Below, piece by piece: positions 16,012 to 55,326 of a DNA stretch of 64,000 nucleotides. The DNA comes from Pseudomonadota bacterium. GTDB taxonomy: Bacteria; Bdellovibrionota_C; UBA2361; SZUA-149; DAOLCO01. The translations under genes were made by a program, and so were the position numbers. Numbering within the stretch: the stretch's first letter is position 1; every line of letters begins with the position of its first letter. The stretch covers positions 108,028 to 172,027 of the forward strand of contig JAIYCX010000028.1 of assembly GCA_027487795.1 (NCBI GenBank). Direction: 5' to 3'. A model generated the notes under the pieces. The model had not been told where the DNA came from and did not search any database. It worked only from the letters and a program-made list of their open reading frames with translations.

Positions 16012-16175
16012 ACAGGAAGGGTAGGAGGATAAGAGGGGTTTAATAATTTAGGTCGTGATAGAGGAAAAAGAGAGTTGAGGTAATTTCGAAAACTGTGGAG
16101 CTTTGCAAAAAGTTTGTGTGATACAAACCTAAAACTCTCCCCTTCTATTCTCCTATCCTTCCTGTTTTTTCTCCC
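16012..16175. repeat. MITE-like element with ~28-bp imperfect CT/AG-rich terminal inverted repeats
   Basis: Left arm acaggaagggtaggaggataagagggg. Right arm ctccccttctattctcctatccttcctgt, ~85% reverse-complementary. A related CT-rich stretch lies at 15896-15925 and a solo copy of the arm at 42003-42045. Confidence 0.35.
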
Positions 16176-16613: not shown

Positions 16614-16823
16614 ATGAACAAAATAAAAAGAATCACTGCAAATCTACCAGAAGAATTACTTACAAGTGCGATCAGTGTTACTAATAAAAGCATTACTGAA
16701 ACCATAGTAGAAGGACTTGAGAGAATAAAAAGGTCAAGTGCCTACTCAAAAGCACAATCTCTAAAAGGTAAACTAGATTTAAAAATCGATATAAGGAAAA
16801 GTCGTGAGCGGGATCGTAGTTGA
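16614..16823 (+). CDS. vapB: VapB-type antitoxin (RHH/CopG-like N-terminus)
   Basis: 69 aa. N-terminal 'KRITANLPEELL' ribbon-helix-helix-like. Overlaps the downstream PIN-domain gene by 20 bp. Confidence 0.55.
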   Translation: MNKIKRITANLPEELLTSAISVTNKSITETIVEGLERIKRSSAYSKAQSLKGKLDLKIDIRKSRERDRS

Positions 16824-17184
16824 TACTTCTATTTGGATAGATTATTTTAAAGGAATTAGCTTTCCAATAGTAGATGATAGCCTTAAAGAAGGTTCCTTAA
16901 GTTTATCTCCTATAATTGTTTCTGAATTATTAAGTGCTAAGTTAAATCCAAACTCAAAAAAGCAACTTATAGATTTCTTACTTGATCTTAAATTTATTAA
17001 TTGCGATTTTTCGCATTGGATAAGAGTAGGAGAATTAAGATCTTTTTTTGCAAGAAAAGGCATTACCATTTCAACGCCAGATGCACATATTGCTCAAGTT
17101 TGTATAGATGAAGACTGTCACTTAATAACTGGGGATAAAATATTTACACAAATAGCTAAGGTAATTAAGTTAAAGTTAATTTGA
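16804..17184 (+). CDS. vapC: PIN-domain ribonuclease toxin VapC
   Basis: N-terminal 'IVVDTSIWIDYF' (first acidic residue), 126 aa, with conserved acidic positions (D..E..D) of the PIN fold. Confidence 0.8.
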   Translation: MSGIVVDTSIWIDYFKGISFPIVDDSLKEGSLSLSPIIVSELLSAKLNPNSKKQLIDFLLDLKFINCDFSHWIRVGELRSFFARKGITISTPDAHIAQVCIDEDCHLITGDKIFTQIAKVIKLKLI

Positions 17185-34492: not shown

Positions 34493-36097
34493 ATGTTTAG
34501 TATTTTTGTAGGTGAAAATTATTTTATCATTCCTGAACAAGATACTAAAATTCAGGATGGTGTTTTTTCGAGTGTTTTTGGCGAGTTTTTAGTTAAAGAA
34601 AACAAACTCACCTTTAGTTCGAAAGGAGGATTAGAACCTGTTACTATTACAAACGAAAAACAAGGATGGTTTATTTTTGAAAATGGGTCTTTTGTTTCCG
34701 ATTGGAAATCGAATACAATTACCGCATTCGGGAAGCCAAAAAATCTTCTTAGTCAAAATAAAACCCTACCGAATTATGTTCTTGATAATACGACGGAAGT
34801 TAAAGTAGATGGTAGTTGCAGGTACACTTATTCGCTGGCTGAGCCTGAGAAAATTAAATCTATTGACGTAGCAAACTCCTGCACTCCAGAAGAATTAGAA
34901 GTACTACTTGCTAGTTTTATTTTAAAAGGCAGTGATCTTTCGACTGGTATATTTAAAGGATTCGTAGATGCTTATTGGTCCTTTACTAAAGCAGTAAGTT
35001 ACATCAATCAACTTTTTGAACGTTATAAAGATGTGAAAGATTTTGGTTGGCCGAGACATGGAAATACTTGTCTTAGTTTTAAAGGTAAAAATTTATCTAC
35101 TATCGGAGAATATGACAGTGTATACATACCCGGATCATTCGAAGATTGTGGGATATCCATTATACTAAAGCATAAGGATGCTATTTATGGATGTGGTCCA
35201 GAACCTATCCATCCCTTTTCTTTAGTTCCTCATACTACAAGGAGTTGGCAGGACCCCCTTCTTAGACCATTATCCATGTTACTAGAGAGACATGGATGGA
35301 AAGTGTTTAAAACTCTTTTAACGTCTCGGCACTTTGAGACCATGGAAGTTTTCGATAACGGTTCAAGAGCTTTTGCAGAGCTAATGGTTGAAAGATACGG
35401 CATTGAGTATGTGCCATCTGGAGTTGAATCTTGTCATAAATTTTTCCTTAGAAAGTTTAATGGGAAAGATATCAATAAAGACTATAATAACTTCATGAAC
35501 GAGTGGAAGTTATTTCGACACCGAGCGGATCTTCGAACTGCTTACTGTCTCTGGGGTGATTCATTTCTGAGAGAAATAATTGCAGCAGCGTCAGTTACTG
35601 ATGTTAGCTGGATTGGAAAACAAAAAGTTCATTCTAGAATTTTTCAGTCCTCAGATGGAGTTCTAAAGTTTAAAGAAAAAACTGATGAATATCCTATTGC
35701 TAAGTCAACTAGATTGATGCGCTTACAAGCTGAGAATTTTCTAGTCTCAGATAATCTTGTTACGGGCAAAAACTCAGAAAATGTAGGTACTAACATGAAA
35801 CTAAAGGGATTTCTCTCACCCCCTATTTCTGCTCCTGCATTCTTTAACTCTGAAGTTGAATTATATGCTTTTGCCTTCCGTCCGAAGACTTCAAGTGTCG
35901 TAGTTGCTATACTCGAATGGGGTCTATTTGATTACGAAGTTCGTGCTATTAGGTTATTTGCTGATGGAAACATCAAGCCAATAAAGCTTAATGATACCAA
36001 ACTTCGATTTAGCTTCGCCGTGTCTGATGGTGCTTGTTTAATGTTTGAAGAAGAAGATTTGGTACAAACAGAAGAACAAGAAGTACTAACGACTTAA
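34493..36097 (+). CDS. Hypothetical protein (534 aa, Cys/Trp-containing, no recognisable domain)
   Basis: Long uninterrupted ORF with coding-like composition. No signal peptide. No motif I can place. Confidence 0.5.
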   Translation: MFSIFVGENYFIIPEQDTKIQDGVFSSVFGEFLVKENKLTFSSKGGLEPVTITNEKQGWFIFENGSFVSDWKSNTITAFGKPKNLLSQNKTLPNYVLDNTTEVKVDGSCRYTYSLAEPEKIKSIDVANSCTPEELEVLLASFILKGSDLSTGIFKGFVDAYWSFTKAVSYINQLFERYKDVKDFGWPRHGNTCLSFKGKNLSTIGEYDSVYIPGSFEDCGISIILKHKDAIYGCGPEPIHPFSLVPHTTRSWQDPLLRPLSMLLERHGWKVFKTLLTSRHFETMEVFDNGSRAFAELMVERYGIEYVPSGVESCHKFFLRKFNGKDINKDYNNFMNEWKLFRHRADLRTAYCLWGDSFLREIIAAASVTDVSWIGKQKVHSRIFQSSDGVLKFKEKTDEYPIAKSTRLMRLQAENFLVSDNLVTGKNSENVGTNMKLKGFLSPPISAPAFFNSEVELYAFAFRPKTSSVVVAILEWGLFDYEVRAIRLFADGNIKPIKLNDTKLRFSFAVSDGACLMFEEEDLVQTEEQEVLTT

Positions 36098-36350
36098 GCA
36101 GAAAAAGCTAAGTCTTAAGGTATTCTATATTAACACTTTTCCACCATGTAGTATTACTAATACTACATGGTGTTTAGAAAAATGTTTAATAGACTGATAT
36201 AATTCCCAGTTATTATTTAAGGTTTAAGCGTATTCCATTAAAATAATAAAACTATACTTCCCTACTTTACTCCCAAAGAGCTGCCTCTTTTTTAAATTAT
36301 ATTTTTGTAAAAAATGAAGTTAAAAAGAAAATTGTTGTGGAGCGGCGTGG

Positions 36351-36508
36351 GAGAAAGGCATCGGGATTTAGGATTATTCGCAGATGACGAGGGGGGAGGA
36401 TGCGCGGGTAAGATTTCGGAAATTATCTTGCGACTGCAAGAAAAGTTCCGAAACTTACGGTGGCTTCAGTTCGGCACAAGAATAATCCTAAATCCCGATG
36501 CCTTTCTC
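36351..36508. mobile_element. MITE-like / structured element with 29-bp perfect terminal inverted repeats and a GC-rich 100-bp core
   Basis: gagaaaggcatcgggatttaggattattc (36351-36379) is the exact reverse complement of 36480-36508. The core is much more GC-rich than the flanks. Flanked by A-runs. Confidence 0.5.
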
Positions 36509-36540
36509 AGATAAAAAAACCAAAATCTAAAACAAAAAAA

Positions 36541-36576
36541 GTGAAAAGAGAGGCTGCATCGCTTTTCTCTTTTCAC
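36541..36576 (-). terminator. Rho-independent terminator for the ECF sigma factor gene
   Basis: gtgaaaagaga / tctcttttcac 11-bp perfect stem with a 13-nt loop. A T-run follows on the - strand. Confidence 0.45.
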
Positions 36577-36614
36577 CCGGATAACCAAAAAAACCAAAAA
36601 TAATATCTGTTAGA

Positions 36615-37289
36615 TTAAGCTGCAGCCCTAAAGGATGCATTTGATTGAGCATTTTTTGTTTCCTCTACCGCGAAATCTTCATAAAACTTTTTTAACTTTC
36701 TTCTAAGCATTATTCTTGATCTATGTAATCTAGACTTAACAGCCGGAATACTTAGGTTTAAAATATCCCCTACTTCCTTATTAGAAAGTCCGTCCACATC
36801 TCTTAGAACAAATACCGCTCTATATTCATCTGGTAATCTACCGATAGCATTTTCTAGAGCTTCTCTAATTTGATTATTCATAGTTAATGAATCAGACTGA
36901 GAGCCGAAACCATATTCTTTATTAGAAGTTTGGTTCTCTATAGTAGGAAGCATATCCTCGATAGAAACTGTTCTATCTTGCTTCTTCTTTCTCAGCTTCA
37001 TGAAAGCTGCGTTTACAGTTATTCTGTATAACCAGCTAGAAAATTTTGCTTTACCTTCAAAGCTCGCGATCTTTCTATATACTGTTATAAAAACATCTTG
37101 TAGCACCTCTTCCGCATCCTCTTGGTTTCTTGTTAATCTCATTGAAAGATTATGAACCTTTGTTTCGTATCTTAAAATAATTTCAGCGAAACTCTCCTCA
37201 CATCCCTTCATAAATTTTTGAACTAGTAGCTCATCAGTTAGTTGATCTACATTCTTCTTTAGTTTTCTTATCTTTGTCTTTGCAGCCAT
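36615..37289 (-). CDS. ECF-type RNA polymerase sigma-70 family factor
   Basis: Region 2 'EVLQDVFITVYRKIASFEGKAKFSSWLYRITVNAAFMKLRKK'. Region 4 HTH 'LPDEYRAVFVLRDVDGLSNKEVGDILNLSIPAVKSRLHRSR'. Confidence 0.85.
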   Translation of the reverse strand: MAAKTKIRKLKKNVDQLTDELLVQKFMKGCEESFAEIILRYETKVHNLSMRLTRNQEDAEEVLQDVFITVYRKIASFEGKAKFSSWLYRITVNAAFMKLRKKKQDRTVSIEDMLPTIENQTSNKEYGFGSQSDSLTMNNQIREALENAIGRLPDEYRAVFVLRDVDGLSNKEVGDILNLSIPAVKSRLHRSRIMLRRKLKKFYEDFAVEETKNAQSNASFRAAA

Positions 37290-40102: not shown

Positions 40103-41599
40103 CTAGAAAAGATCCTCTACAAATAAAACCTTAATTCCAAATTCCTCTCCCATTTCCTCAACTGCCTTATTATACCTTAAGGAAGTACATAAAAACTTAC
40201 TGATTTTTCTATTATAACTTTTTGGTAACTTAATTTCCTTCTCTGAAAAGTTTTTAATTATTTCTCTAGTTAATTTATCTTTTCCAGAAATCCACTTAGC
40301 CTCAATGACTCGGAGCTCTCTTTCGTCCTTACTATCAATTATAATATCGAATTGACTTTCTGTATCCGAATAAGTTCCTAGCTTATACTCAGGTGAAACG
40401 ATATTTAATTTCTTAAATAGCTTCTGATTTAAATTAAATCTATTCTCTAATATTCTTTTGATTAAATCTTCAAAAGCTTTGCCTGTAAAATCTTCAATAT
40501 AATAGCCTGATTTTGATTTGATTAACTGATCGAATAGCAGCCCTGAGCGATTAAGTTTAATTCTTTCCGTGTAGCTTTGAAGAACTTGAAAATAAAAAAC
40601 TAAAAACGGATCTTTACAATAATATCGTACTCCGCGTTTATTTCCTCTTTTAATACTTATAATATCTTCTTGTTCAAAAATTATATTATAGTTTAACAAT
40701 TTATTTATTTGCTCACTGACAGAGCTTTGTGAAATTCCTGTCACTTTAACTATTTTCTCTTCCGTAGCACCAAATATTCCTATAGTTGATAGAATTAATT
40801 TTATATTTCTCATACTGGCATTCGAAAATTCTAAATTTAGTATTTCATCTACTTCATTTAAAAAAATAGTTTTTTGCTGAAAAATAGCCTCGTTAACTGC
40901 TAAGATAAATCCTTTATCATTAGTACTCTTATTACTGGTAATAGCCTCTAAGTAATAAGGCACCCCGCCCAACATCATATCGATTAAACATATTTCTTCC
41001 TTTGACCATTTTGGGAAATAATACTCTGATATTTCCTGAAGTGAAAAAGGCAACACCCAAATTTCAGAATAAGTGCTTAACCCCCTAAGTGGTGCTTCTG
41101 AATTATGGATATTTTTTGTAAAAAACTTATTTGACGACCCAGATATTATTAATTTTATCTTTCCAGATTTCCTCCAATCCAGCCATGCTTCTTTAAGATA
41201 ACCTAAAAACCCACTCTGAGATTTTGAGATCCATTGAATTTCATCTAATAAAATTATAATCGGATGCTTATTATTCTTAGCAACTTTTAAAATATGTAAA
41301 AAAATTAAAGGCCAAGTTAATCTATCTTCTTTTATATCTAATAAATAAGTATCATTTGAAAATTTAGAAAAACTATTAATAAACTCTTTTCTAGTTTTTA
41401 TATCATTTGCATCTGGCAGGCCTTGAAAATAAAAAGTATCTTTTCTTTCACTAGCAAGCTTTTTTAAAAGTGTAGACTTTCCAATTCTCCTTCTACCTCT
41501 TAAGTAAGTAAGTCCCGAACCCTCTTGTAACAGAAAATCATTTATTGTTGCTAACTCTCTTTGTCTCGGAAAAAATAAAGTATTTTTAGTAGTGCTCAT
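40103..41599 (-). CDS. P-loop ATPase of the 'archaeal ATPase' (PF01637-like) family with a DUF234-like C-terminal domain
   Basis: Walker A 'GRRRIGKSTLLKKL'. Walker B 'IIILLDEIQW'. C-terminal winged-helix/DUF234-like region. 498 aa. Confidence 0.7.
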   Translation of the reverse strand: MSTTKNTLFFPRQRELATINDFLLQEGSGLTYLRGRRRIGKSTLLKKLASERKDTFYFQGLPDANDIKTRKEFINSFSKFSNDTYLLDIKEDRLTWPLIFLHILKVAKNNKHPIIILLDEIQWISKSQSGFLGYLKEAWLDWRKSGKIKLIISGSSNKFFTKNIHNSEAPLRGLSTYSEIWVLPFSLQEISEYYFPKWSKEEICLIDMMLGGVPYYLEAITSNKSTNDKGFILAVNEAIFQQKTIFLNEVDEILNLEFSNASMRNIKLILSTIGIFGATEEKIVKVTGISQSSVSEQINKLLNYNIIFEQEDIISIKRGNKRGVRYYCKDPFLVFYFQVLQSYTERIKLNRSGLLFDQLIKSKSGYYIEDFTGKAFEDLIKRILENRFNLNQKLFKKLNIVSPEYKLGTYSDTESQFDIIIDSKDERELRVIEAKWISGKDKLTREIIKNFSEKEIKLPKSYNRKISKFLCTSLRYNKAVEEMGEEFGIKVLFVEDLF

Positions 41600-41641
41600 C
41601 TTATGTTTTATTCAATTTCTGTATTACTTAATTTCCAACAG

Positions 41642-41799
41642 AAACATCGGATACTTTTAAGCTATACTAAATCCGATGTTTATAACCTACTGCATATATT
41701 ATATATAATAATCATGTTTTTGAAGCTATTAATATTATGCTTTATTTATAATAGGTTAAAAACATCGAATTTAGTATAACTTATCTAAATCCGATGTTT
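41642..41799. promoter_or_regulatory. Pair of inverted ~40-bp hairpin motifs (aaacatcgRat...atccgatgttt) in the divergent promoter region
   Basis: 41642-41681 has 11-bp perfect arms. 41760-41799 is the same motif in inverted orientation with diverged loops. Between them is an AT-rich (TA)n tract. Confidence 0.4.
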
Positions 41800-41961
41800 G
41801 GAAAAATATCCATTAGTACAAAAGTGCATGATTAAAGTAAAAAACTTGGGGGTATCCATATCGAAGCCCGCGACCTTGCCCAATAATAGAAATTAAATTT
41901 AACTCTACAAGTTTTTTATTTCACGAGTAATTGTTATATTACTTAAGTCTAGCTCTCTTCA

Positions 41962-42144: not shown

Positions 42145-45100
42145 TTGCCGAAAGTAGCTAACAATTCAAGCGGTTACGCTAAAGACTCTGCATTGCTATC
42201 AAATGCTGTCGAACTCGTTTTGCCCGAAAACCCGAGGCTTAGAGAAGAATTAAGTAAAGAAAACTCAAAAAATAAATCAGAAAAACTACCAGAAGGACTA
42301 TTAGATAAAAGCTTAGGAGAAAGTTTAAATAAGCTAGTAAGCGAACTAGGCGATGCCAGATTCGATCGTGGTTTTAACATGACCTATGGCCAAGCCACTC
42401 AAGATAACAATATTTACAAAACTCGACTACAAGTAGCTAGTCAGCAGATCGAGGATTCAAAACTAAAGATTAAAACCCATCTAATGCATAGTGGCGCTAC
42501 TCCTGAAGAACAAAAAGCGCAATATGATAAGATACGAGCATTTGCCGCTACTCGTGAACTTGAAGGACTGAATCAATTCCAAGCAGCAAAAACTGAGTAC
42601 CAAAGAAGATCTGTTGAAGAAGCAGAAAAGGCAAGAAGAGAAGGTGGAGCAAGTTACGCCCTAGGGGAAGTATTAACAAAAGCCACAAAATCAGCCTCTA
42701 CTCTTATTCCAACAACTAAAGAATCTGTGGATATATTAGGCAGTGCGATATTCTCAGGCGGTGAAGGAATAGAAAAAGTAAGACTTAAAAATCTCTCGGA
42801 AAGAGGAGAGTCCGTTCTTGGAACAACAGAAGAGTTTGCTAAAGGAAGTAATTCATCATTTAGCAATACAGTAGCCCTAATGGGAGTAGGTCTAGCTCCA
42901 CTAGAAAAGGTATCAGGGATGACCTTAAACCCAGCTCTAGAGAGCGTAGACATTGGTCTTAGAGCCTCAAGAGCTGCAAGTTATAATGCAGTTTCTGCTA
43001 ACGATGCTCAGATTAGTTACGGTGAGTATAAAGAGCTAGAAGATAGAGAAGGTCTACTAAAAGCAGCGAAGCTTAGTATGGACGGTGCAAAGATAGCACT
43101 AGGAGCAGCAGCTCTTGGACCTAGCTCTTTGTCTCAGTTAAGTCAGCCTATGCTAGTCTCAGGAGGTATGGGGTATGCTGGTGCTTTATCAGAAGAGCTA
43201 CTATCAAAAGAAGGTTTTAAATTAGGACGTTTTTTAGAGCATGGTTTTACTGGGACAGCAGATAGTTTTCTGTTCATGGGTGGCATTACAGGAATCGGTC
43301 ATATAGCAGAGAAGACTGGGGCACTACATAAGATGTCGTCAGTAAAGACATTATTAAGTCTTGAGAATGGAGTTCAGAAGGAGAAGAAACTAGAGGCTAT
43401 TTATAAAAGCTTTAAGGGACTAGAGATCACAAATGATGAGGCAAGGTTTGTAAGTAATCTAGTTGCTGAGATGAAAATGGGGCTAAGTGGGAAAATAGAC
43501 CTGATTGATTCTCTACCGGATGTTCAAAAGAGTCTAAATATATTTTTAGAGAAGGTCGGAGATTTAAGCGCACTAGAGATCTATGAGAAGCTTAAAAAGG
43601 ATCCAGAGTATCGCAGGATGCTAAGCGGGGCGGTTCTTAAAGTTGGAGTATCAGGGTTTGATGCTTTTGATGTTAAGAGCGGTACTAAGGGGATGGAGAG
43701 TCTAGAACAAACAGGAAGGATGGAAGATGGGAAGGGGGAATCCTCCACCGTCATCCCTGCACAGGTCGCTGGTCTTGTCACCGCTGCGGAGGCACAGGCA
43801 AGGATCCAGGAGAGTTTAGAAAAAACAGGAAGGATAGAAGGAGGGAAGGAATTTAAAAACTCAGAACTAGAAACTTTCGCAAAACGTCTTGAAAAATCAA
43901 AAGGTGTTAGTCTTGTTTATGACAAAGAAACTCTAATAAAAGAACAAGCAGGTGCTCTTTACAATCCTGATGAAAAAATCATTTATGCTCCAACAGATGC
44001 AGTAGAACAAAACAAAGTCACAAAACAATTAAAGCATGAAAAAATCCATGCGATGCTTGATAGAATAAAAGACGAGGGCGGAGATAGTTTTTCTTTTGGG
44101 AAAATGTCCTTAACTGGCAAAGATACAACCCTAGAAGAGTTCGTAACTTATCCAGAAATGCTAGCAGAATATGCAAAGGATATTAGAAAGAATCTTGGAA
44201 ATTTAGATTCAAACCTAAACTTTATAAAAGAACATGTACAAGTTCTTAGAGATTACAATGAACAACTCAATAAAACCTTAAATATCAAATTCAACTCAGA
44301 TCTAGAAATAAACACAAACTCTGGTATTTTAGATAAAGTCATACAAACTTTTCAAAATATATTTAACTTTGGAACTAAAACTAATCTAGAACTAGAAACA
44401 AAAAAACGTATTGATAAAGATGGTAACACTATCTACGTTAAAATTGGAACTATCAAAAAAGGTGATTTATCATTATCACTAGATCTATCCATAGCTTCAG
44501 ATAGAAATAATCTGAACTCAGACACTGATGCAAAAAAGCTATTTAGTGAAAAAATAGAAACTTTAAAATTCGTACAAAAAACTACAAGTGATGCATTAAA
44601 TAAAATTAGTAAAAGTATTTCTAGTAATAATCAAGAATCGCTAATCTCAAATATATTCGATCTCCGAAGTCAGTTATTTCCAATTTATGTAACTTCAGGA
44701 AGCGGTGTAACTGCAGCTAAAAATGTTCCTACTGGAACAAAAGTTGAATTAAATAAAACATTATCCAAAGAAGATTTAGTAGATAAGTATGATTATGTTC
44801 AGGCGGCGACGCATAGTTCTGTGGCACAAGCACTTGAGCTATTAAATAATTTTCCTAATTCAGAAAAAGAGCTTAAAGAATTTATAAAAAATACTAAGTT
44901 AAATAAATCTCAAATTAAAAAGATAGAAAAACATGCTGTTTCTATAGGTAGATCACTTGTAGAAAATGAAGAATTAAATAATTATAATAAGCTAACTCAT
45001 GTAAATAGTTTATATAGGTTATCTCACATATTTAAACAGCTAGGCCTAGATTTATTAAATAATAAAGAAATTATAGCCGCTATTAGTAATAGAAATAAAG

Positions 45101-48100
45101 CTATAACTGATAGTTCGGCAAAATACTCGGCTAAACTTCTGGTCGAGCGCAAAGTAAGAAATCAAAATTTTATTAGCAAGCATTACACAATCGTACGTCC
45201 ACAAAAAGAACAAACTGAAGAAATTAAACAAGAAGAGAATGAAACAAAAGAAATTAAACAAGAAGAGAATGTACATTTATTAAAAAGAAAAAGTACTAAT
45301 GATTTACCAGATGAAAAGAAAACACCAGTAGAATTACTTAAGCTTCAAATCAAAAACTTTCAGGGCATTACAGACAGAATACAAACAAATTTAAATAGCC
45401 TTCAATCAGACGACTATCAACGTGCTGAAGTCTATCAATTTGCTGAAAACAGATTAATTATTTTAATAGAGCAAGGAAATTTTAAAGTTTTTTCAAGTCT
45501 AATTGAGTTATTAAGACAAAATGAATTTGAATTAGCTGACTTTAAAAAAGTTCATGATTCTTTAAACCAATATTATTCAAATAAATCTGCAGATATATTA
45601 ATAAAAAGTTTAAATGAAGATCTTAATAATCTGCCGCTATCTATAAAACTTAATCTAATAAAATCTAGAATTACTAATACTATTCAGAGCGAAGGATTCT
45701 TAGCTTTCTTGAAAGTCTCAGCAAAACTCGATGAAGAAATTAGGAAAAATATCTTTGCAGATGAAACTATAAAAAAACTAGCTGCTGATGCAATAGTAAA
45801 TGAATTATTAGATCCTAACAATTCAAAGGTTCATCAAGTATTTAATGAAAACTATTTAAACTTTAGCAAAGATGAATTAAAAGATATAAGCAATCGTGTT
45901 GAAAAATTAAAAAGTATAGACTCTGAGAGAGCTGAAGAAAGTACGTTAACAGAAGCTAGTGAAACTGATGAAATACAATTAAGTCAGTTTGATTTAGATA
46001 ATCTAGAAGAAGGTCAAATAAAATCAGTATTTTATTATTCAAAACAATCTGCAAGTATATTTTTACTAGGCTTAGATGAAGGCCTTAAAACTCTCCCGCA
46101 GTCTGTAAAGCTTAATGTAATAAAATATAAAGCTGCTTTAATTTTTAAAGATAATGGATTTTTGTCTTTTATAAAATTCGCAAAAAAATTAGATACGGAA
46201 TTTAAGCAAAATATCTTAGCAGATGAAACTATTAAAAAATTAGCTGCCGATGCAATAGTAATTGAATTAGTAAATCCCGAGAACTCGAAGGTTAATAAAG
46301 CATTTCAAGATAATTATTTAAACTTTAGTAAAGATCAATTAGAAGAGATACGCAGTCGTGTTGAGAAATTAAAAAATTCAAATAATCATAGCGCTGAAGA
46401 ATCTAGAAGACTACATAAAGAATTATTCAAAGATGGAGATAAATCAGATAGAGAAATAATGCGAGCTATAAAAAAGCTAGGCTATCCTACTGGAATATCA
46501 AAAGATGAAGTGGTAGGTAGGTTCAGAGATTTTATTGTAGCCGGAGCTTTTGATTCAATAAAGTTAGATATAAATAGATTTAGAAATAAAATCACAAACG
46601 CAATGGTTATAGAGGCTATTGCAGACGTAGAGGAACTGCCAGGATCTGAAATAGAAAGAACTAAAAATAGCGCTGATAGACCTAGTATAGTTCGTTTTTA
46701 CCAAAGTCAATTTAACGAATTTGAAAATGAAGTTCTAGAAGATATAGAAAAAAATAAACTTATAGATCATGATTTATCAAACAAAATAAAACTATTAATT
46801 CGGGCTAAACATGTTGAATCAATATACGAAATGCGTGGCATTAGATTATCTAGCATTTTAGAAGATTTACCCGCTAGATTATGGGAAGAACAATTCATTA
46901 AATATCCCTCTGAATATCATTACTTCCTGAGTAGACTTTCTTCAGAAGAAGTTAAAAGTTTAAATGCTAATCACGCAAATACTTTCTTAAAAATAGCGGG
47001 CATTCAAGCTCAATCCGCTGATAAAGATAATAATCCTTGGGTTACTGAGTTTGAATCTTTAGTTAAGCATCTTATTGAAACTAAAAAGTTTAAATACGAA
47101 GAGCCAAAAACGGGCGATACTCTTATTGAATTCGTAAGCCAATTTGGAATGGTTAATACACCAGAATTAGCAAATGTATTTTTTGATTTATCTTCAATCA
47201 AAGACTACAAAGATCAAAATCAGGATACTAAAAATCTCATTAATAATTTATTTTTAGAAGCTAAGGCTATTAATGAAGCTAAATCTACTAATAAAATTTC
47301 TATACCAGAGATTACAGAGTTAACTAAATCACAAGATATTAAAAAGTTTTTGATTTCCTACAAACAAACTCTTCTTGTTAATTTAATTAATGAAGAAGAA
47401 TCAACTTTAGCAAACCTAGATAGTGAACTTTCAAAAAATATATTAGAGTCAATCTTAGAAACATCATTTGACAGAGACAGTATTGATATTCCTAGTGTTA
47501 TAAAAACCTTGAGAGATAATTTAAATTCTAATAAAAGAAGCTTCTCTTTAGAAGACTACCAAAAAGAAAAAACAATTGATGTTAAATTAGTTAGAAAGAA
47601 AATAGGCGTTGACGAAGCTGCCATAAACAAAGAAAAAGAACGTGCGCTAGCTAATCCAGATCTTATAAAAGTAAGTACTAACTTAACTCAAACGATATCC
47701 AAGGCTCTAGAAGCAATTGATTCCGGCAAAGAAAATGCTTTGATTGTCGAAGAAATACAAGAAGCACTAAAAAACTTAAACCAAAGATTATTAGAAATAC
47801 AGAATGGTTTAATTAAGCCTGATCTAACTGAAAATGCTAAAAAAGGTATTTCAATAAACCTTATTAAAACCGAAGCAGATATTAAATTATTAAATATTCT
47901 ATTAAATAATGATTCCTTTGATCAGATTATTGGTAAATTAGACTCTAACAATCAAAATCATCTAAGTATAATTCAAGCTATTTCAACTTTAGAAATAGTA
48001 AAATCTTTACCTGAAGAAACCCTTAATCAATTACAAAAAGTTTGTAATGATAATGTAAGTTCTGAAATTATAAAAGAATCTTCTTTAAGATTTTTAGCAA

Positions 48101-51100
48101 ATTTCATAAATAATAATATTACTTTATCTAAAGATTTAAAAATACAAGAAGCATGGAAAGTAAAAAACTTATCAAAGCATCCAATCTTCGTAACTATTGC
48201 AAAAATAAAAGAGCTTGATAATTCAACCAATGAAGTATTAAACGATACTGGCAAAATCTTAATGGTTCCCGTGAAAGGACTTCTTCATGTTATGTCTGGT
48301 TTCATATCTGACGCTTGTACCACAGGCATTGCAAATAACCTGGCGGCAGGAAAGGAACCAAGTGTCACAACATATTTATTTGTCACAGACAGGGGCACTT
48401 CTTCTGAGAAGGTTAGAGGTGCAGTATTAGGAATTGAAACTTTTACACCAGATGGCAAAAAAGTATTAGTTATTAGAGCTAATAATCCAAAACAAGGTAT
48501 AGGCACACGCTTCGATACAGATTCTTTATTAGAACAAACAGTAGAATACTTCAAGAATATGGCTGTCGAAGGGGGATTCGATTATTTAGTAGTACCTGTA
48601 GACGGAACTGGTGAGTCAGGTTCAAATCGAGATTTTGTTTCTGATTATTATCAGGAAAATTATTCTAAAAATGAAAAACTTCAACTCATTCAATCTAGTG
48701 AGACAGAACTTAATAGATACTCGAATTTTAATAGTAAAGGACCGAATGCTGTAAGAGTAGTTTGGAGTAGAGAAGCAGAAGAAAAAGTTTCTGATGATGT
48801 TTCACTTGACGTAAGAAGCAGCAGCAAGACTCATGAAGAGTCTGAAAATCTCAATTCTCGTACATCAAACTCAATATCAAAAACACTAAGTAATTCCATA
48901 AGCTGGATTTTTAGCTCAGGAAAAAAATCTAATGTGGATAACCTTAAAGAATTAATAACTCAATCTAGAAGCTTACTATCTCAATATAGGGTGTATTCCT
49001 TAGAACAAAGAACTCAATTACTAACGCCAAAGATTCAAGAAATAAATGGATTAGTAAAACAAAGATTAGATGAATTAAATCTTAAATATACAACAACAAC
49101 CAATTTCAAGCTCTTTCCAGAACTCAAAAAAGAATTTGCTGGTATAGAATGGTCCATTTTCATTATAGATCCGGAACAGAATAGCACAAATTCTATTGCA
49201 AAGTACGCAAAAAAAATCGATCTTATCAATGGTGGTCAGCTTGTAGTAGACGTACCTAGATTAATCATAAATCAATATGATGCAGTAGTTACTAATGATA
49301 TTCATACCCTATCCGTTAATGGATTAATTAAAGGCGAAATCGATAAGCTTAGTGACTTCCATGAATATGATCATTTAAAAGGTAGAAAACTAAATGCTGA
49401 TGGAAATTCAACTCCCTATTCCGGTTTCATAGAATCTTCTTTATTTAGTAAATATATCAAGTCAGAGCAAAGCTCTGATATCATGGTAAACCATGATGAA
49501 CTTTTAGCTTATACTAAAAATATTTTAGAATTAGTAAAGAGAGGAGACAAGCTTAAAAATATTCTTCATGAAGTAAATTCATATAAAAATAATTTTGTTG
49601 ATTTCTATAAAAAAGAATTAGCATTATTTTCAAGTCCAACTACAACATACTCTGCACAAGGAAGCACAGCTTACTTTACACATGTATTCCCCTTAGATAA
49701 AATAACTATTCATGACTTAGTCCTAGGAGAAGCTACACAAGGAAAAGAAAAAATAACATTTTTCTTAGGCAAAAAAGGAGATCTAATAGCGCTAGCTGAA
49801 AAAAATAATCTAGAATTAAAAGAGCTCGTTGAGCTACTAATAAAAGAGAGGATAAAAGAATTATTAGATATTACTACAAATGTATCAGCACAAGTTGAAA
49901 CATTTCTTAAATCAATAGAAGAAATTAACAAATCAAAACCTAAAAATTATAAAAAAATAATTGATGATAAATGCCTAGACTTTGCTACTAGCTTAAGATT
50001 TTACACACTATCAAGAGCAAAAAGTACTTCTAGTGACTTATTAGAAAACTACTTTAAGCAACTTAATAAAAATAATGATTCTGCTTTATCAGATTTGCTA
50101 GGCGATCTAGATTCAGAGCCCCTCTCCGCTCTCGACCTAAAAAACAAATACTTTAAAGACGAATCTCTAGAAGCTCCGCATATTACCACTAATGGTAAGA
50201 TTAGATATGTCGGATCTAGAGAGCAATTACAGGAAGAGTATAAAGCATTACTAGGAAGTGGTGCTGTATTAAATGAAAACACAGTTGCTTTTTATGATCC
50301 TAAATTTAAACAAACAGTAAGTATTATTCCTGAGACTTTAAGGAATAAAATAAATAATGTTAAAGAATCAGTACCAAGAGATCAGAGAGTTATTGAGGCT
50401 TCTTTTATAATTCATGAAAAGACACATGAGAAGCTTTCAGCAGGCAAAACTAATTTCTCTGATGCAGAAAGATTTAATCAAGAAGTAGTTTGTTACAGAG
50501 CTCAGGCTGAATATCTTTTCGATAGAGGCTTTATCATGAGCTTTAGCTCTGATGGTTATAGTATAGAAAAGAAATTACCCGGTGATAATATTTTATCACT
50601 AGATGAAAATCTAGATCTAAGTATTAAAAAATTTATAAACGCACATTATAATTTTCCTAATTATGTTACTAACCCTTATGAAGTAGAAAGACTTGCTAGT
50701 TTCTCTAAGGAACTTCTTAAACTACAACCTTATGAATCTAAAGTTTATGGTAGAGATTTTTTAGAGCAAAGCGATCTTCCAGAAAATGTAAAATTAAAAG
50801 ATTTAGCTTCCTCTCAAGCAAGATTAACTCGCATGCCAGACGTTGAAGGTAAGCCTAAATTTGTTATAACACCACTAGGTGGTGATGGTGTTTATAAAAA
50901 TGGTAAAAAAATAGACACAGAAACTGAAATTAATTTATTTGATAAAGTATGGCTTGGTTCTGTTGTAAAACTCCACACCTGGGAGAAGTTAAATACAGAT
51001 TCTATTTACAGAAGGGTAGATCGACCTAAATTTTTTAAAGATAAAGAAATATTGACTGTCCTAAGCTATATATTAGATGATGATATTCTTCACTCTCCAG

Positions 51101-52470
51101 AGTCACAAAAGATACTTACTGGTAAGCGACTACCAAAAGACAATATTAATGAAATCGCAGATATAGTAAATCAAGGCGGTCCGATAAGATTAACTTTAGT
51201 AGGACTAGCTAAAGAAGCAGATAGTCAAGCCATAGTTATAGAATCAATAGATCTCAGAGATCCTGCCGCACCTATAGCAACAATCAGAAATCCTGGCCAA
51301 GGTATGAAGATGATAGTACCTTGGTACAGTATTAAAGACAGACTTGCATATGTTCCTCAATACTATCAAGTAGAAAAAAATAATACGTCAGCACCTTTAA
51401 CAAACAGGCCTTTTGAGGCGATGGGAAATGAATCTGTATTAGATCTTATTAAAGAACTAAAAACCATAGATCTAAATAATAATGGCAAAGAAAAGATAGA
51501 AAATGTTTTAAATCGCATTAATGAGAATCTTGACAAGGCTACTATTCCTTTAATAGATCGTTCTGGGAAAATAATTCAAAAACTTTCTAAGGATGTAATA
51601 GAAGATAACAGTACTTTAGATATTAGTAACGTAGATTATAGTACAATAAAAGAACTCTTCGAAATCGAAGCTCAATTACAATCGTTTGAATCAGCTGGTA
51701 GTTCTATGAGTACTATACGATCATATTTAAATAATGCAAATACTGTTGATGTTTCAGGATCAATATTAGCTGAAGCGATTATACTGGAACACAGGCTTAC
51801 TGGGTTGCCTAAAGATTTTACAAAACAAGTAGAAGTCTATGTAAGATTTATAGGACTACTTAAGAAAGATATTGCTGAAGCTGGATTTAATCAAGATAAG
51901 AATTCAAATACTGATAAGTCAGTATCTAATCTTTATGATAGTTACATAGCTACAGATGGTAAATTATCAAAACTAGCAAAGTATCTTAAAAATAAAAATG
52001 GGATCTATGGATACGAAGAAATTTCTCAGGGGATAATTAATGCTGTAGTTGAAAATTTAAGAATTAACGAAGCTAGGAAATTAAAAACAGCTTTAGATCA
52101 AAACTTAGATAGCTTTGAACAAGTATTTAGCACAGAAGGTGGGGTGCATTATTATAAGTTAGCGGATAATAGTGCCATTGTTGTCAGAGATAATTTTGAG
52201 GATGATCAAGCGCTAGTTAGAAAGGCAGAGAATGTATTTTTTGTTGCTGAAGATCAGGTTAAGGGGATTAAGGAGCAGTTGAAAGCAATTGCAAAGGATG
52301 GGATTGGTATTTTTGATTTTCAATCGATGGCACTAGCGGCAGGTGTAATTCCTTTTGAGCTAATAGGCTTTCAAGTTGCTGTTGGAGTCGATGGAGTTGT
52401 TACTGCTGAAGTAGTTAATAAAAATTCCCAGACGCATTTGGGAGGTGAGATAGTTGAAACTAAAATCTAA
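42145..52470 (+). CDS. Giant hypothetical protein (3441 aa). Predominantly Lys/Glu/Leu/Asn-rich and helical-looking, with no signal peptide. It contains two HExxH motifs and a 154-aa internal tandem duplication.
   Basis: Uninterrupted 10.3-kb ORF with TTG start and an AGAGG RBS 4 nt upstream. The first in-frame ATG is at codon 79. HEKIH at 44037-44051 and HEKTH at 50413-50427 lie in similar local contexts. Duplicated blocks around 45630-46090 and 46092-46550 ('ADETIKKLAADAIV' occurs twice). A Cys-containing conserved-looking block 'GFISDACTTGIANNLAAGKEP' is near 48300. Confidence 0.75.
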   Translation: MPKVANNSSGYAKDSALLSNAVELVLPENPRLREELSKENSKNKSEKLPEGLLDKSLGESLNKLVSELGDARFDRGFNMTYGQATQDNNIYKTRLQVASQQIEDSKLKIKTHLMHSGATPEEQKAQYDKIRAFAATRELEGLNQFQAAKTEYQRRSVEEAEKARREGGASYALGEVLTKATKSASTLIPTTKESVDILGSAIFSGGEGIEKVRLKNLSERGESVLGTTEEFAKGSNSSFSNTVALMGVGLAPLEKVSGMTLNPALESVDIGLRASRAASYNAVSANDAQISYGEYKELEDREGLLKAAKLSMDGAKIALGAAALGPSSLSQLSQPMLVSGGMGYAGALSEELLSKEGFKLGRFLEHGFTGTADSFLFMGGITGIGHIAEKTGALHKMSSVKTLLSLENGVQKEKKLEAIYKSFKGLEITNDEARFVSNLVAEMKMGLSGKIDLIDSLPDVQKSLNIFLEKVGDLSALEIYEKLKKDPEYRRMLSGAVLKVGVSGFDAFDVKSGTKGMESLEQTGRMEDGKGESSTVIPAQVAGLVTAAEAQARIQESLEKTGRIEGGKEFKNSELETFAKRLEKSKGVSLVYDKETLIKEQAGALYNPDEKIIYAPTDAVEQNKVTKQLKHEKIHAMLDRIKDEGGDSFSFGKMSLTGKDTTLEEFVTYPEMLAEYAKDIRKNLGNLDSNLNFIKEHVQVLRDYNEQLNKTLNIKFNSDLEINTNSGILDKVIQTFQNIFNFGTKTNLELETKKRIDKDGNTIYVKIGTIKKGDLSLSLDLSIASDRNNLNSDTDAKKLFSEKIETLKFVQKTTSDALNKISKSISSNNQESLISNIFDLRSQLFPIYVTSGSGVTAAKNVPTGTKVELNKTLSKEDLVDKYDYVQAATHSSVAQALELLNNFPNSEKELKEFIKNTKLNKSQIKKIEKHAVSIGRSLVENEELNNYNKLTHVNSLYRLSHIFKQLGLDLLNNKEIIAAISNRNKAITDSSAKYSAKLLVERKVRNQNFISKHYTIVRPQKEQTEEIKQEENETKEIKQEENVHLLKRKSTNDLPDEKKTPVELLKLQIKNFQGITDRIQTNLNSLQSDDYQRAEVYQFAENRLIILIEQGNFKVFSSLIELLRQNEFELADFKKVHDSLNQYYSNKSADILIKSLNEDLNNLPLSIKLNLIKSRITNTIQSEGFLAFLKVSAKLDEEIRKNIFADETIKKLAADAIVNELLDPNNSKVHQVFNENYLNFSKDELKDISNRVEKLKSIDSERAEESTLTEASETDEIQLSQFDLDNLEEGQIKSVFYYSKQSASIFLLGLDEGLKTLPQSVKLNVIKYKAALIFKDNGFLSFIKFAKKLDTEFKQNILADETIKKLAADAIVIELVNPENSKVNKAFQDNYLNFSKDQLEEIRSRVEKLKNSNNHSAEESRRLHKELFKDGDKSDREIMRAIKKLGYPTGISKDEVVGRFRDFIVAGAFDSIKLDINRFRNKITNAMVIEAIADVEELPGSEIERTKNSADRPSIVRFYQSQFNEFENEVLEDIEKNKLIDHDLSNKIKLLIRAKHVESIYEMRGIRLSSILEDLPARLWEEQFIKYPSEYHYFLSRLSSEEVKSLNANHANTFLKIAGIQAQSADKDNNPWVTEFESLVKHLIETKKFKYEEPKTGDTLIEFVSQFGMVNTPELANVFFDLSSIKDYKDQNQDTKNLINNLFLEAKAINEAKSTNKISIPEITELTKSQDIKKFLISYKQTLLVNLINEEESTLANLDSELSKNILESILETSFDRDSIDIPSVIKTLRDNLNSNKRSFSLEDYQKEKTIDVKLVRKKIGVDEAAINKEKERALANPDLIKVSTNLTQTISKALEAIDSGKENALIVEEIQEALKNLNQRLLEIQNGLIKPDLTENAKKGISINLIKTEADIKLLNILLNNDSFDQIIGKLDSNNQNHLSIIQAISTLEIVKSLPEETLNQLQKVCNDNVSSEIIKESSLRFLANFINNNITLSKDLKIQEAWKVKNLSKHPIFVTIAKIKELDNSTNEVLNDTGKILMVPVKGLLHVMSGFISDACTTGIANNLAAGKEPSVTTYLFVTDRGTSSEKVRGAVLGIETFTPDGKKVLVIRANNPKQGIGTRFDTDSLLEQTVEYFKNMAVEGGFDYLVVPVDGTGESGSNRDFVSDYYQENYSKNEKLQLIQSSETELNRYSNFNSKGPNAVRVVWSREAEEKVSDDVSLDVRSSSKTHEESENLNSRTSNSISKTLSNSISWIFSSGKKSNVDNLKELITQSRSLLSQYRVYSLEQRTQLLTPKIQEINGLVKQRLDELNLKYTTTTNFKLFPELKKEFAGIEWSIFIIDPEQNSTNSIAKYAKKIDLINGGQLVVDVPRLIINQYDAVVTNDIHTLSVNGLIKGEIDKLSDFHEYDHLKGRKLNADGNSTPYSGFIESSLFSKYIKSEQSSDIMVNHDELLAYTKNILELVKRGDKLKNILHEVNSYKNNFVDFYKKELALFSSPTTTYSAQGSTAYFTHVFPLDKITIHDLVLGEATQGKEKITFFLGKKGDLIALAEKNNLELKELVELLIKERIKELLDITTNVSAQVETFLKSIEEINKSKPKNYKKIIDDKCLDFATSLRFYTLSRAKSTSSDLLENYFKQLNKNNDSALSDLLGDLDSEPLSALDLKNKYFKDESLEAPHITTNGKIRYVGSREQLQEEYKALLGSGAVLNENTVAFYDPKFKQTVSIIPETLRNKINNVKESVPRDQRVIEASFIIHEKTHEKLSAGKTNFSDAERFNQEVVCYRAQAEYLFDRGFIMSFSSDGYSIEKKLPGDNILSLDENLDLSIKKFINAHYNFPNYVTNPYEVERLASFSKELLKLQPYESKVYGRDFLEQSDLPENVKLKDLASSQARLTRMPDVEGKPKFVITPLGGDGVYKNGKKIDTETEINLFDKVWLGSVVKLHTWEKLNTDSIYRRVDRPKFFKDKEILTVLSYILDDDILHSPESQKILTGKRLPKDNINEIADIVNQGGPIRLTLVGLAKEADSQAIVIESIDLRDPAAPIATIRNPGQGMKMIVPWYSIKDRLAYVPQYYQVEKNNTSAPLTNRPFEAMGNESVLDLIKELKTIDLNNNGKEKIENVLNRINENLDKATIPLIDRSGKIIQKLSKDVIEDNSTLDISNVDYSTIKELFEIEAQLQSFESAGSSMSTIRSYLNNANTVDVSGSILAEAIILEHRLTGLPKDFTKQVEVYVRFIGLLKKDIAEAGFNQDKNSNTDKSVSNLYDSYIATDGKLSKLAKYLKNKNGIYGYEEISQGIINAVVENLRINEARKLKTALDQNLDSFEQVFSTEGGVHYYKLADNSAIVVRDNFEDDQALVRKAENVFFVAEDQVKGIKEQLKAIAKDGIGIFDFQSMALAAGVIPFELIGFQVAVGVDGVVTAEVVNKNSQTHLGGEIVETKI

Positions 52471-52701: not shown

Positions 52702-55326
52702 CTATTTCAACTCATATAAGATAGTATCACGATAAGGACTCGGTGGATCTTTTTGTATCACTGCGGAGCCCCTAGTTTTATTTGATGATATTGAGGCCGC
52801 ACCACTAGACCTCGGAGTACCAAGCCCTTTCTGTCTTTCTAAAAACTCTTGTCCGAAAATTCTTGTTAGATATCCATTGTCAAATCTGGAGGAAGTAACT
52901 ACTCCCGCTTCCCAAAATGCCATAAAAATATCTAGCTCAGATGGATCTAGAGAGAGATCTCGAATAGCGCTAAGTAATTTAGGCGTCATTTCCGGAAGTG
53001 GAGATGCCACATCAATATATTGGCGCAAATCTACATTTCTAGCTTTCAAAATATTAAATATCTCTTCTCCAGACAAAGTTCGTATCCAGTTAAGACAGTT
53101 AAAAGTAGAGACTCTTTGTGTTAATGTTCCATATGCGGTGGTACCGCTTGGCGTGGTCTTGTAAAATCCCGTACCCGTTCCATCAATAATCTGAACACCA
53201 TTTTCTAACTGTACGGGACCAATTACTTCATCGGCATGATTGGCTGCATGCTGAAATTCTTCTGCCTTATATAGTAAATTAGCTTTCCTCAAACCCAAAC
53301 TAGCTTCTTCGTATAAAGCAAGAACTTCTTTGCCGCTCTGACCAGGACCTAATAGCTCATGAATTAATTCATCTGACTCATCTGCTAAATTTGAAATTTC
53401 TTTAACTACTTCACCATTTGGCCCACGATAAGGCAATACATCTCCAGGTTTTGGAATAAACTGACGCAATACCTCACCAAACATATCATCATTAAAAACA
53501 TAGTAGTGCGTAGGTGTTTTAAAATCAAAAATAGAGATTGTTTTTACCTTATAAGCATAGTTTCCGTGTGTTCCTAAATCGTTAATAGAGCGACCTGCTG
53601 TATCTAATAAGTGTTTCTCACTTAATGTTATTAACTCTTTTTCATAAATAGTTCTTACCATATCGGGTGAAACGTTACCTCCAAGCTGATCAATCTTTTG
53701 TTTTGTAAGATACTTAGCTTGTCTTGCTAATTCGATCATACTAGTTAAATCAAATTCTGCTGTAGCAGTTTTTAATTGTTTACCATTTAACAGTAAGGTA
53801 TTTAATAGCCTGTTTAGTGCTTGTTCTGCTTCATCAATACTGTTTTTTGCTAGATTAGATGAAAATTCATTGAAGGCATTTCTATAAAATGTAAATTGAT
53901 TTATTATTTTTGAAGTTAATGTGGCAGGAAGATCTTTTAGCTTAAATGCTTTAATAAGTTCAGCTAGTTGCTCTAGCTCGGATAAATTTTTTGGTATCTT
54001 AACCGCATCCACTAGGCCCCTTACTACACCTGCTACCGCTGCCTTAAAGCCTGGTGCTGTTGAGATTTCCTTTGCTACTGCTGTTAGCCCAACATTACCT
54101 CCCTGTATGCCACTAGTTAACTTCTGTGCATCTGCCACCCCATCAACCAATTTCATTCCCTTAAAATCACGAGAAAGTATCGCTAGAACAACTAATCTTG
54201 CATAGTCATCAATCTTCATTTGCCCCTGCGCGCCTATCTTAGTTCCGATTGCTAAAGACAAAGAACCGACGGATCCTGCTATAAACATAGCTTTTGAGAT
54301 CTTTCTAAATTTACTAGCTTGCGAAAGAACTGGTATTGAATCCAATAATAAATCCGCTGCAAATCCTGCCTGATCAGCCGCTGTAACTATTGGTTTGTGT
54401 TCCCACCAGCCAGTATCATGAGTTTGTGCATACGCTCTTGCGACTGCCACAAAAGGAACGATTTCTAATGCTAGTTGTGTTCCTTCTAATGTAGTAACTA
54501 CATTTTCCCAGTACTCTTGGTGTCTCTTAATAACAAATCCTTCTGCTATAGAATCTAAAGGATAAGCAGGTGGGAAAACATTTAGTAAATAATAAATACT
54601 GTCCTGATCAGGAGCAAAATATTCTTTAGTAGCTTCATTCCGATTCGGCTCTGAATTATCAGTGGACTTTATTTTAGCTTTTTGCACTACTCGATCGACA
54701 TCTACTTCTTTACCAATAAGTGTAGGCACTCGATAAGCATTACAATTGGGTTCATATTTGATATAAACAAAAGTTCCACAATTTGTAGGAAAGTAAAACA
54801 TGTTTGACCAATTAGGTACCTTTTCTAGCTTACCATTTCCCAGCTTATCATTCATTTTAACAAAAGGTTTGAATTGAAGAAGATAGCCATCTCTTCTCAA
54901 TTTAGTTAGAGTCTTTGAGGTTATAAATGATAATTTAGAATCCTTATCATCCTTACGCCAGTCAGAATACTGTTGACCATTTCTAGTGCCCTCAGTAAAA
55001 AAATAAGCTTTCTCTACTAACCACTCCCTTGATAAATCTTCAGACATTTCCATAAGATGATAAAGTTTTTTACTATCCCACTCCCGATCAAAATTATGGA
55101 CAACCACTACTGGTGCTCCCGCGCCTGCTCCCTTCCCCTTCCAATCAATAAATGAGCACTCTGAAAAATCCTTCATTAGTTCAGTGACTTTTAACTGTGC
55201 TGGATTCCACGGTGGACCCGAAGTATCAATTGCGGCTATCTGTTCTGGACCAGACTCTTGAGATAGAGTTAACTCTGCTGAGAAGTTTAACAGTAGAAAG
55301 AGTATAAAATATCTAATCACTCTCAT
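52702..55326 (-). CDS. Large secreted hypothetical protein (874 aa)
   Basis: Signal peptide MRVIRYFILFLLLNFSAELTLSQ. Long ORF with no domain I can place. Start codon overlaps (ATGA) the stop of the frameshifted remnant upstream. Confidence 0.6.
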   Translation of the reverse strand: MRVIRYFILFLLLNFSAELTLSQESGPEQIAAIDTSGPPWNPAQLKVTELMKDFSECSFIDWKGKGAGAGAPVVVVHNFDREWDSKKLYHLMEMSEDLSREWLVEKAYFFTEGTRNGQQYSDWRKDDKDSKLSFITSKTLTKLRRDGYLLQFKPFVKMNDKLGNGKLEKVPNWSNMFYFPTNCGTFVYIKYEPNCNAYRVPTLIGKEVDVDRVVQKAKIKSTDNSEPNRNEATKEYFAPDQDSIYYLLNVFPPAYPLDSIAEGFVIKRHQEYWENVVTTLEGTQLALEIVPFVAVARAYAQTHDTGWWEHKPIVTAADQAGFAADLLLDSIPVLSQASKFRKISKAMFIAGSVGSLSLAIGTKIGAQGQMKIDDYARLVVLAILSRDFKGMKLVDGVADAQKLTSGIQGGNVGLTAVAKEISTAPGFKAAVAGVVRGLVDAVKIPKNLSELEQLAELIKAFKLKDLPATLTSKIINQFTFYRNAFNEFSSNLAKNSIDEAEQALNRLLNTLLLNGKQLKTATAEFDLTSMIELARQAKYLTKQKIDQLGGNVSPDMVRTIYEKELITLSEKHLLDTAGRSINDLGTHGNYAYKVKTISIFDFKTPTHYYVFNDDMFGEVLRQFIPKPGDVLPYRGPNGEVVKEISNLADESDELIHELLGPGQSGKEVLALYEEASLGLRKANLLYKAEEFQHAANHADEVIGPVQLENGVQIIDGTGTGFYKTTPSGTTAYGTLTQRVSTFNCLNWIRTLSGEEIFNILKARNVDLRQYIDVASPLPEMTPKLLSAIRDLSLDPSELDIFMAFWEAGVVTSSRFDNGYLTRIFGQEFLERQKGLGTPRSSGAASISSNKTRGSAVIQKDPPSPYRDTILYELK

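Follow-up and report, generated by a model that had tools for sequence, protein, structure and literature searches.

Miniature inverted-repeat transposable elements, abbreviated MITEs, are shorter than 500 bp, lack a transposase gene and end in inverted repeats of ∼4–30 bp; they are typically AT-rich, young copies are flanked by direct repeats and the family is mobilised by a cognate transposase (PMC10969869). A MITE can also be single-copy in a genome, MITEAba12 occurring in 1–22 copies (PMC10969869). We have investigated a 158-bp element, designated E1, located at positions 36351–36508 of a 64-kb window, the window being the whole stretch analysed (64,000 nucleotides of contig JAIYCX010000028.1, assembly GCA_027487795.1, from a bacterium placed in Bdellovibrionota_C). 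An earlier note had read E1 as either a MITE or a highly structured non-coding RNA. E1 resembles the Correia (Neisseria), ERIC/IRU (enterobacteria) and RUP (pneumococcus) MITEs in length (100–160 bp), in terminal repeats of ∼25–30 bp and in being non-coding, intergenic and near gene 3′ ends, as these elements often are (PMC10969869, PMC3184786). In contrast, these families comprise tens to hundreds of copies, show target-site duplications in young copies and are AT-rich, whereas E1, GC-rich compared with its host, has no detectable second copy, no duplication and no cognate transposase. Correia and ERIC transcripts form long stem-loops, RNase III cutting Correia and ERIC altering mRNA stability (PMC10969869, PMC3184786), and these hairpins would provide the best analogy for the action of E1, although E1 is not of their class.

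A second described system is the template-switch quasi-palindrome, in which, as in E1, perfect arms occur beside imperfect symmetry, differences between relatives are clustered and multi-nucleotide, and the structure is single-copy and non-mobile (PMC7202029, PMC8604942). Documented template-switch events mostly involve arms shorter than ∼20 nt and short spacers, whereas in E1 arms of 29 nt are separated by 100 nt and the breakpoint with the closest relative lies off the arm edge. Conservation of inverted repeats in Proteobacteria has also been described (PMC5941160); our literature search found nothing specific to such elements in Bdellovibrionota. Intrinsic (Rho-independent) terminators, including bidirectional ones, share with E1 a hairpin located between convergent genes, but E1 has no U-tract on either strand, its stem is ∼5 times longer and the canonical terminator of the neighbouring sigma factor gene lies 32 nt away. 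E1 is a new instance of a known and common feature, the single long intergenic inverted repeat. Our preferred reading, to which we assign a probability of about 0.4, is that E1 is a foldback, young, single-copy and restricted to its lineage, in a 3′-to-3′ spacer, neither a proliferating MITE nor a conserved RNA gene, which acts, if at all, via a read-through hairpin. It may have originated by local inverted copying or be a solo mobile relic.

E1 is flanked by the 3′ ends of a 534-aa open reading frame (ORF; 34493–36097, + strand) and a gene encoding an extracytoplasmic function (ECF) sigma factor (36615–37289, − strand), beginning 32 nt past the sigma gene terminator, an arrangement of convergent genes and adjacent terminator that the earlier note had described correctly. 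Its arms (left, sigma-distal, 36351–36379, GAGAAAGGCATCGGGATTTAGGATTATTC; right, sigma-proximal, 36480–36508) are 29 nt each and 100% complementary, also in agreement with the earlier note; they are 100 nt apart, and the repeat does not extend outward. The arm sequence, searched with up to three mismatches, occurs at just these two sites in the 64-kb window and was matched in 0 of 100 shuffles. More generally, three inverted repeats with at least 20 of 22 positions matching and arms ∼40–300 nt apart were detected in the window and none in any of 12 shuffles. GC content is 47.5% over E1, 51% in the 100-nt core and 41% in the arms, compared with 29% and 30% in the flanks (36098–36350 and 36509–36614, respectively) and 34% in the window, so the GC-rich core noticed earlier is real. 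The GC-rich block reaches 14 nt past the left arm, the adjacent segment at 36337–36350 (GTGGAGCGGCGTGG) being 79% GC as read from the sequence, and the repeat ends are therefore not clean composition boundaries.

Folding, a check proposed in the earlier note, gives one interrupted hairpin comprising all 158 nt, with predicted energies of −85 (+ strand RNA), −77 (− strand RNA) and −52 kcal/mol (DNA) and z-scores of −10 to −12; the hairpin is retained when E1 is folded with ∼400 nt of context. The outer 29-bp helix is followed by a weakly paired centre, in which the G-rich 5′ segment (36380–36408, GCAGATGACGAGGGGGGAGGATGCGCGGG, C-rich on the − strand) is poorly paired with its 3′ partner (36458–36479), and by an inner imperfect hairpin (36409–36457) of ∼22 bp with one bulge, two mismatches and the loop GACT at 36432–36435. 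Within the centre, the − strand tract CUCCCCCC (36391–36398) is predicted to be unpaired. The extreme z-scores result from the inverted repeat itself and hence do not constitute independent evidence for a non-coding RNA. E1 is not an assembly artefact, since independent contigs carry it: the 158 nt and both flanks are identical in Logan contig L003 (SRR16126829), while a second Logan contig, L002 (SRR16126830), terminates within E1.

Three strains on record are close enough for comparison, represented by contigs L002, L003 and L004. The first two are identical to the window. L004, from an ENA metagenome (ERZ28593787), encodes a sigma factor 98% identical to that of the window, and DNA identity is 96.1% in the sigma coding sequence, 97% in the 3′ untranslated region (3′UTR) and terminator, 93% in the 5′ upstream region and 69% in the 32-nt spacer separating the terminator from E1 (36509–36540), which has the same length in both. 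Beyond this spacer, the two sequences share a block at 36390–36510 with 118 of 119 positions identical within E1 (36390–36508), plus two matching flank bases, CT. The right arm is 100% identical in L004, while the left arm is not shared. Homology is lost between 36389 and 36390, 10 nt inside the inner edge of the left arm, and the L004 contig ends 21 nt later, reading ...CCTCCCCCCTTCCCTCGATAAACTCGGGACA; this non-homologous 21-nt tail has no match in the window. E1 is available as two distinct sequences that differ at one position, which is uninformative for pairing. The reduced identity of the spacer (885–916 in L004) results from 10 substitutions clustered within 17 nt, and the window version contains at 36513–36525 a 13-nt direct copy of AAAAAAACCAAAA, present at 36587–36599, 74 nt away, these being the sole two occurrences in 64 kb. 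The spacer patch thus looks like a templated multi-nucleotide mutation.

In more distant relatives E1 is absent. The 3′UTR and terminator are kept, with nothing E1-like following, in L005, L007, L006 and L016, whose sigma proteins are 90, 77, 75 and 68% identical, respectively, to that of the window, and E1 is likewise lacking in L010, L012 and L015 (69–71%), in which purC follows the sigma gene. No significant similarity to E1 was found in the sequences that follow the terminator in L005, L006 and L007, the best alignment, of L007 with the core, being reached by 32 of 500 shuffles. The flanks of the more distant relatives cannot be aligned to the window. By sequence comparison, then, E1 is confined to one species-level lineage.

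The arms of a young foldback would still be identical because a DNA-level copying event made or homogenised them recently, either through a template switch from one arm of a quasi-palindrome to the other or by insertion of one foldback unit. Template switching at quasi-palindromes homogenises arms and generates clustered substitutions (PMC7202029, PMC8604942). Consistent with this, the perfect 29-nt arms adjoin an imperfect interior, and the differences between the window and L004 are clustered in two patches: the spacer patch holds the 13-nt direct copy, and the other, which is unalignable in L004, holds an inverted copy of the proximal arm. As both window patches contain copies of nearby sequence, they fit templated mutation. 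E1 lacks its own promoter and terminator, no sigma-70-like promoter or intrinsic terminator being detected within or abutting it on either strand, so any activity must come from read-through transcripts originating in the 534-aa gene or passing the sigma terminator. Such RNA would fold into a hairpin of ∼65 bp, including the 29-bp perfect helix, which would present both an RNase III-type substrate and a physical barrier. As a passive roadblock or a site of processing, the hairpin would limit the antisense transcription that reaches the opposing gene.

Several observations weigh against this reading. The block common to L004 is better conserved than the coding sequence, with 1 difference seen where ∼4.6 are expected at the coding-sequence rate (P ∼0.06); a neutral relic should not exceed coding conservation, which points to constraint or recent exchange. 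The breakpoint with L004 is positioned 10 nt inside the arm edge, and a simple copy of the other arm leaves part of the altered sequence unexplained. Furthermore, the L004 contig stops 21 nt past the breakpoint and there is no outgroup to polarise which lineage is derived. Template switching favours short spacers (PMC8604942) whereas 100 nt separate the arms of E1; the inner hairpin would nevertheless bring them together. Diverged copies of E1 could exist elsewhere, the host genome having been searched directly over 64 kb. Finally, the effect at the RNA level is entirely inferred.

The MITE reading proposes that E1 is a genuine non-autonomous transposon, either low-copy or solo, with kin copies and a transposase located outside the window or lost. 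E1 has the general architecture of a MITE, being 158 bp long, non-coding and intergenic, with 29-nt terminal repeats, no transposase gene and a stable stem-loop (PMC10969869); its composition is foreign to its surroundings, and more distant relatives lack it downstream of their sigma gene. Past the scrambled spacer, homology with L004 is regained no more than 2 nt from the right end of E1, as would occur at the edge of a discrete unit, and the common part is 99% identical, as it would be after a recent spread. Nor is a single copy by itself an objection, given the range recorded for MITEAba12. However, with perfect arms E1 would count as a young MITE, in which direct repeats are expected (PMC10969869), and the target-site duplications sought at the suggestion of the earlier note are lacking: the left flank ends ...GGAGCGGCGTGG and the right flank begins AGATAAAAAAAC..., with no shared direct repeat of 2–10 nt (...GCGTGG before E1, AGATAA... 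after it). The other breakpoint with L004 is inside E1 rather than at its end. Composition also differs, E1 being GC-rich rather than AT-rich, within a GC-rich block that overruns the left repeat end by 14 nt.

A second copy of E1, or a cognate insertion-sequence end, was not detected in any collection searched. Within the window, no partial copy was found with blastn-short or in a search with one arm 16-mer, and an E1 covariance model applied to the window and 11 related loci matched just E1 itself and the L004 fragment. An arm 20-mer had one match among the GTDB species representatives (185,579 species, 596 Gb), to one arm only and within a Peribacillus coding region, which is attributed to chance. 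The 20-mer and a degenerate inner-hairpin pattern were each absent from JGI metagenomes and IMG/VR, and whole E1 had no blastn match in plasmids and phages. Logan contigs are, in our understanding, derived from a de Bruijn graph with k = 31. Contig L003 runs through E1 with unique flanks on both sides, and its passage at this short k argues, by inference and not by measurement, against a second near-identical copy in that sample. Single-copy status, which the earlier note had listed together with lack of a transcript as evidence that would count against its reading, thus holds within everything searchable. In addition, no transposase, integrase, recombinase or reverse transcriptase is encoded by the 41 ORFs scanned in the window (40 of the window's 42 ORFs of ≥120 aa and one shorter ORF). 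Lacking a target-site duplication, a second copy and a cognate transposase or autonomous element, and being GC-rich, E1 does not support the MITE half of the earlier note, and we consider that origin unlikely.

The other half of that note corresponds to E1 being, or containing, a functional structured RNA, whether a lineage-specific small RNA, a − strand 3′UTR extension of the sigma mRNA or a + strand RNA driven from 36175–36203. E1 is a GC-rich, strongly folding sequence amid AT-rich intergenic DNA, and the 118 of 119 positions shared with L004 contrast with 69% identity in the adjoining spacer. The exposed C-rich segment predicted on the − strand resembles an anti-Shine-Dalgarno sequence, could pair with Shine-Dalgarno sequences and falls within the stretch shared with L004. 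On the + strand, a promoter-like site with an extended −10 element (10 of 12 positions matching) is present at 36175–36203, ∼150 nt upstream of E1. Sites of this type are nonetheless as frequent in the region as expected from shuffles, 4 being found versus 4.5 expected. On the − strand there is no promoter, or room for one, between the sigma terminator and E1, and neither strand has a U-tract after the hairpin. No Rfam 15 family matched the window at the gathering score, and within 36100–36700 a relaxed Rfam search (E ≤10) returned just chance hits (E ≥1.3, far below gathering scores and mostly eukaryotic microRNA or small nucleolar RNA), none of which corresponds to E1. Transfer RNA and transfer-messenger RNA genes were not detected by ARAGORN.

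The comparison with relatives also argues against a conserved RNA, as the closing 29-bp helix is not retained in L004, the 96% relative, E1 is absent from more distant ones and the sole available substitution is silent on pairing. Stable small RNAs do not typically contain a perfect 29-bp helix, which is instead a substrate of the RNase III type. Combined, these results render a functional RNA doubtful. A more specific version, in which E1 is the first representative seen of a functional RNA specific to a lineage of uncultured low-GC Bdellovibrionota, forming a hairpin-capped 3′ extension of the sigma transcript whose CUCCCCCC tract pairs with ribosome-binding sites, and in which conservation in L004 reflects selection rather than recency, is slightly more doubtful. 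Perfect terminal repeats and a GC-rich core are thus insufficient to designate an element as either a MITE or a non-coding RNA.

Three known RNA classes were considered for E1 and rejected. An intrinsic terminator is incompatible with the sequences following the stem, AGAUAAAAAAA (+ strand) and CCACGCCGCUCC (− strand), neither of which is a U-tract. A retron non-coding RNA, with a1/a2 inverted repeats, was rejected as no reverse transcriptase was present among the ORFs scanned, and 6S RNA, with its closing stem, central bulge and terminal stem, was rejected from the lack of an Rfam hit and the perfect 29-bp helix.

As it stands E1 matters little, there being no sign of mobility, of a known RNA family or of conservation beyond one species-level lineage. 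Were it transcribed and processed, E1 would represent either a newly born hairpin insulating convergent genes or a young small RNA, in a poorly known phylum of predatory bacteria. Were it multi-copy, it would define a MITE family in that phylum.

It is very improbable that a dimeric or looping regulator binds the DNA at the arms. CTAAATCCCGATG, present in both arms, resembles the motif CTAAATCCGATGTTT found at 41640–41800, and both arms share with that array, located in a divergent promoter region, the 8-mer CTAAATCC followed by GATG, although offset by one extra C. The resemblance was recognised post hoc and depends on a 1-nt indel, the 8-mer is expected ∼3 times in the window by chance and was seen 7 times, and there is no promoter here to regulate. 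The 15-nt motif itself is present at 41640–41800 in three copies, two exact and one with a single mismatch, plus a partial fourth at ∼41643, in both orientations. This array, a putative operator array from its layout, is situated between a divergent AAA-ATPase/DUF234 gene (40103–41599), which matches the PADLOC candidate PDC-S27 (E = 1e-45), and a 3441-aa ORF (42145–52470) without a Pfam domain.

An inverton, in which the 100-bp core would be flipped by a site-specific recombinase supplied in trans, is more improbable again. Invertons, like E1, are short segments bracketed by perfect inverted repeats, and the E1 repeats are of typical inverton length (PMC11602134). E1 differs, however, in having no promoter-like site in its core, no downstream gene to switch, located as it is between two gene 3′ ends, and no recombinase nearby among the ORFs scanned over 64 kb; the 100-bp core is very short for synapsis, and a single orientation is observed in all four assemblies that reach it (the window, L002, L003 and L004).

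The 66-aa ORF that crosses E1 (36314–36514, + strand) is open and ATG-initiated, but that it encodes a real small protein can be dismissed: it has no Shine-Dalgarno sequence upstream, no Pfam hit, no gene called over E1 on the Logan contig spanning the element, no identical product on record (exact look-up) and no homologue among 1.84 billion representative proteins (HMMER), its sequence is broken in L004 between 36389 and 36390, and its passage through a palindrome causes the peptide ERHRDLGLF to recur in a reverse-strand frame, all in line with the earlier note, which had called it almost certainly spurious.

The window is otherwise ordinary chromosomal DNA, encoding FtsEX, lipoate and 2-oxoacid dehydrogenase enzymes, a glycogen branching enzyme, glycosyltransferases and many orphan ORFs. 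Very large ORFs without a Pfam domain are present at 52702–55326 (874 aa), 55654–58797 (1047 aa) and 58860–63416 (1518 aa), in addition to the 3441-aa ORF at 42145–52470. Upstream of E1, the 534-aa ORF has no homologue among 5.8 billion proteins and matches nothing in Pfam, NCBIfam, PADLOC or the PDB sequences; its single-sequence AlphaFold model, with a predicted local distance difference test score (pLDDT) of 34, is unusable. A perfect 15+1+15 palindrome (36142–36172; CACCATGTAGTATTA C TAATACTACATGGTG) occurs 45 nt past the stop codon of this gene, followed by just three T's and then by the promoter-like site, and may serve as a protein-binding site or as a weak terminator. Further downstream, at 36275–36293, a T-run accompanies a 6-bp hairpin. 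Both hairpins failed the terminator scan, neither having a good U-tract, and read-through from the 534-aa gene into E1 is therefore plausible.

Named homologues of the ECF sigma factor are annotated as Bdellovibrionota, Oligoflexia or Bdellovibrionales. The intrinsic terminator of its gene (36541–36576, − strand), a neighbour of E1 and not part of it, consists of an 11–13-bp stem followed by U7 at 36534–36540 and has a predicted energy of −18 kcal/mol. The 3′UTR (36541–36620, − strand) is conserved in the low-GC relatives (L004–L007 and L016), comprising in order TAATCTAA at the stop codon, a GG-containing U-rich motif and the terminator; in the closest four relatives the U-rich motif reads TTTTTGGnTT...GGTT. 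The terminator stem varies by lineage, being GTGAAAAGAGA in the window and GACTTGGTTGGGG, ACCAGGTAAGG or AACAGCCTGGGG elsewhere, while all six sequences retain GCAGC in or at the loop. Its retention suggests that the loop is recognised by something in addition to its role in termination.

Other foldbacks were observed in the window. E2 (16007–16170) has arms of 32 nt that are 88% complementary and exactly 100 nt apart, all four arm mismatches being transitions. An orphan 567-aa ORF has E2 on its downstream side, and E2 is ∼440 nt upstream of a gene pair (16614–17184), formed by a small ORF and a PIN-domain gene, which resembles a VapBC toxin-antitoxin system and is considered putative. E2 is identical in Logan contig L008 and has no Rfam hit. 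E3 (7097–7250) is 154 nt long with 22-nt arms, is positioned between convergent orphan genes and has no Rfam hit; its four arm mismatches are transitions that yield G-U pairs on the − strand. A single family comprising E1, E2 and E3 was considered and rejected, as local and global alignments revealed no similarity relative to shuffles and the covariance model gave no hit. E3 contains a hairpin (7174–7203) with a T-run and an A-run on opposite sides, a putative bidirectional terminator. Between two − strand genes, at 9513–9558, there is also an inverted repeat with perfect 21-nt arms (GTAGGCTAAGCTAAGAATATT / AATATTCTTAGCTTAGCCTAC) and a loop of 4 nt.

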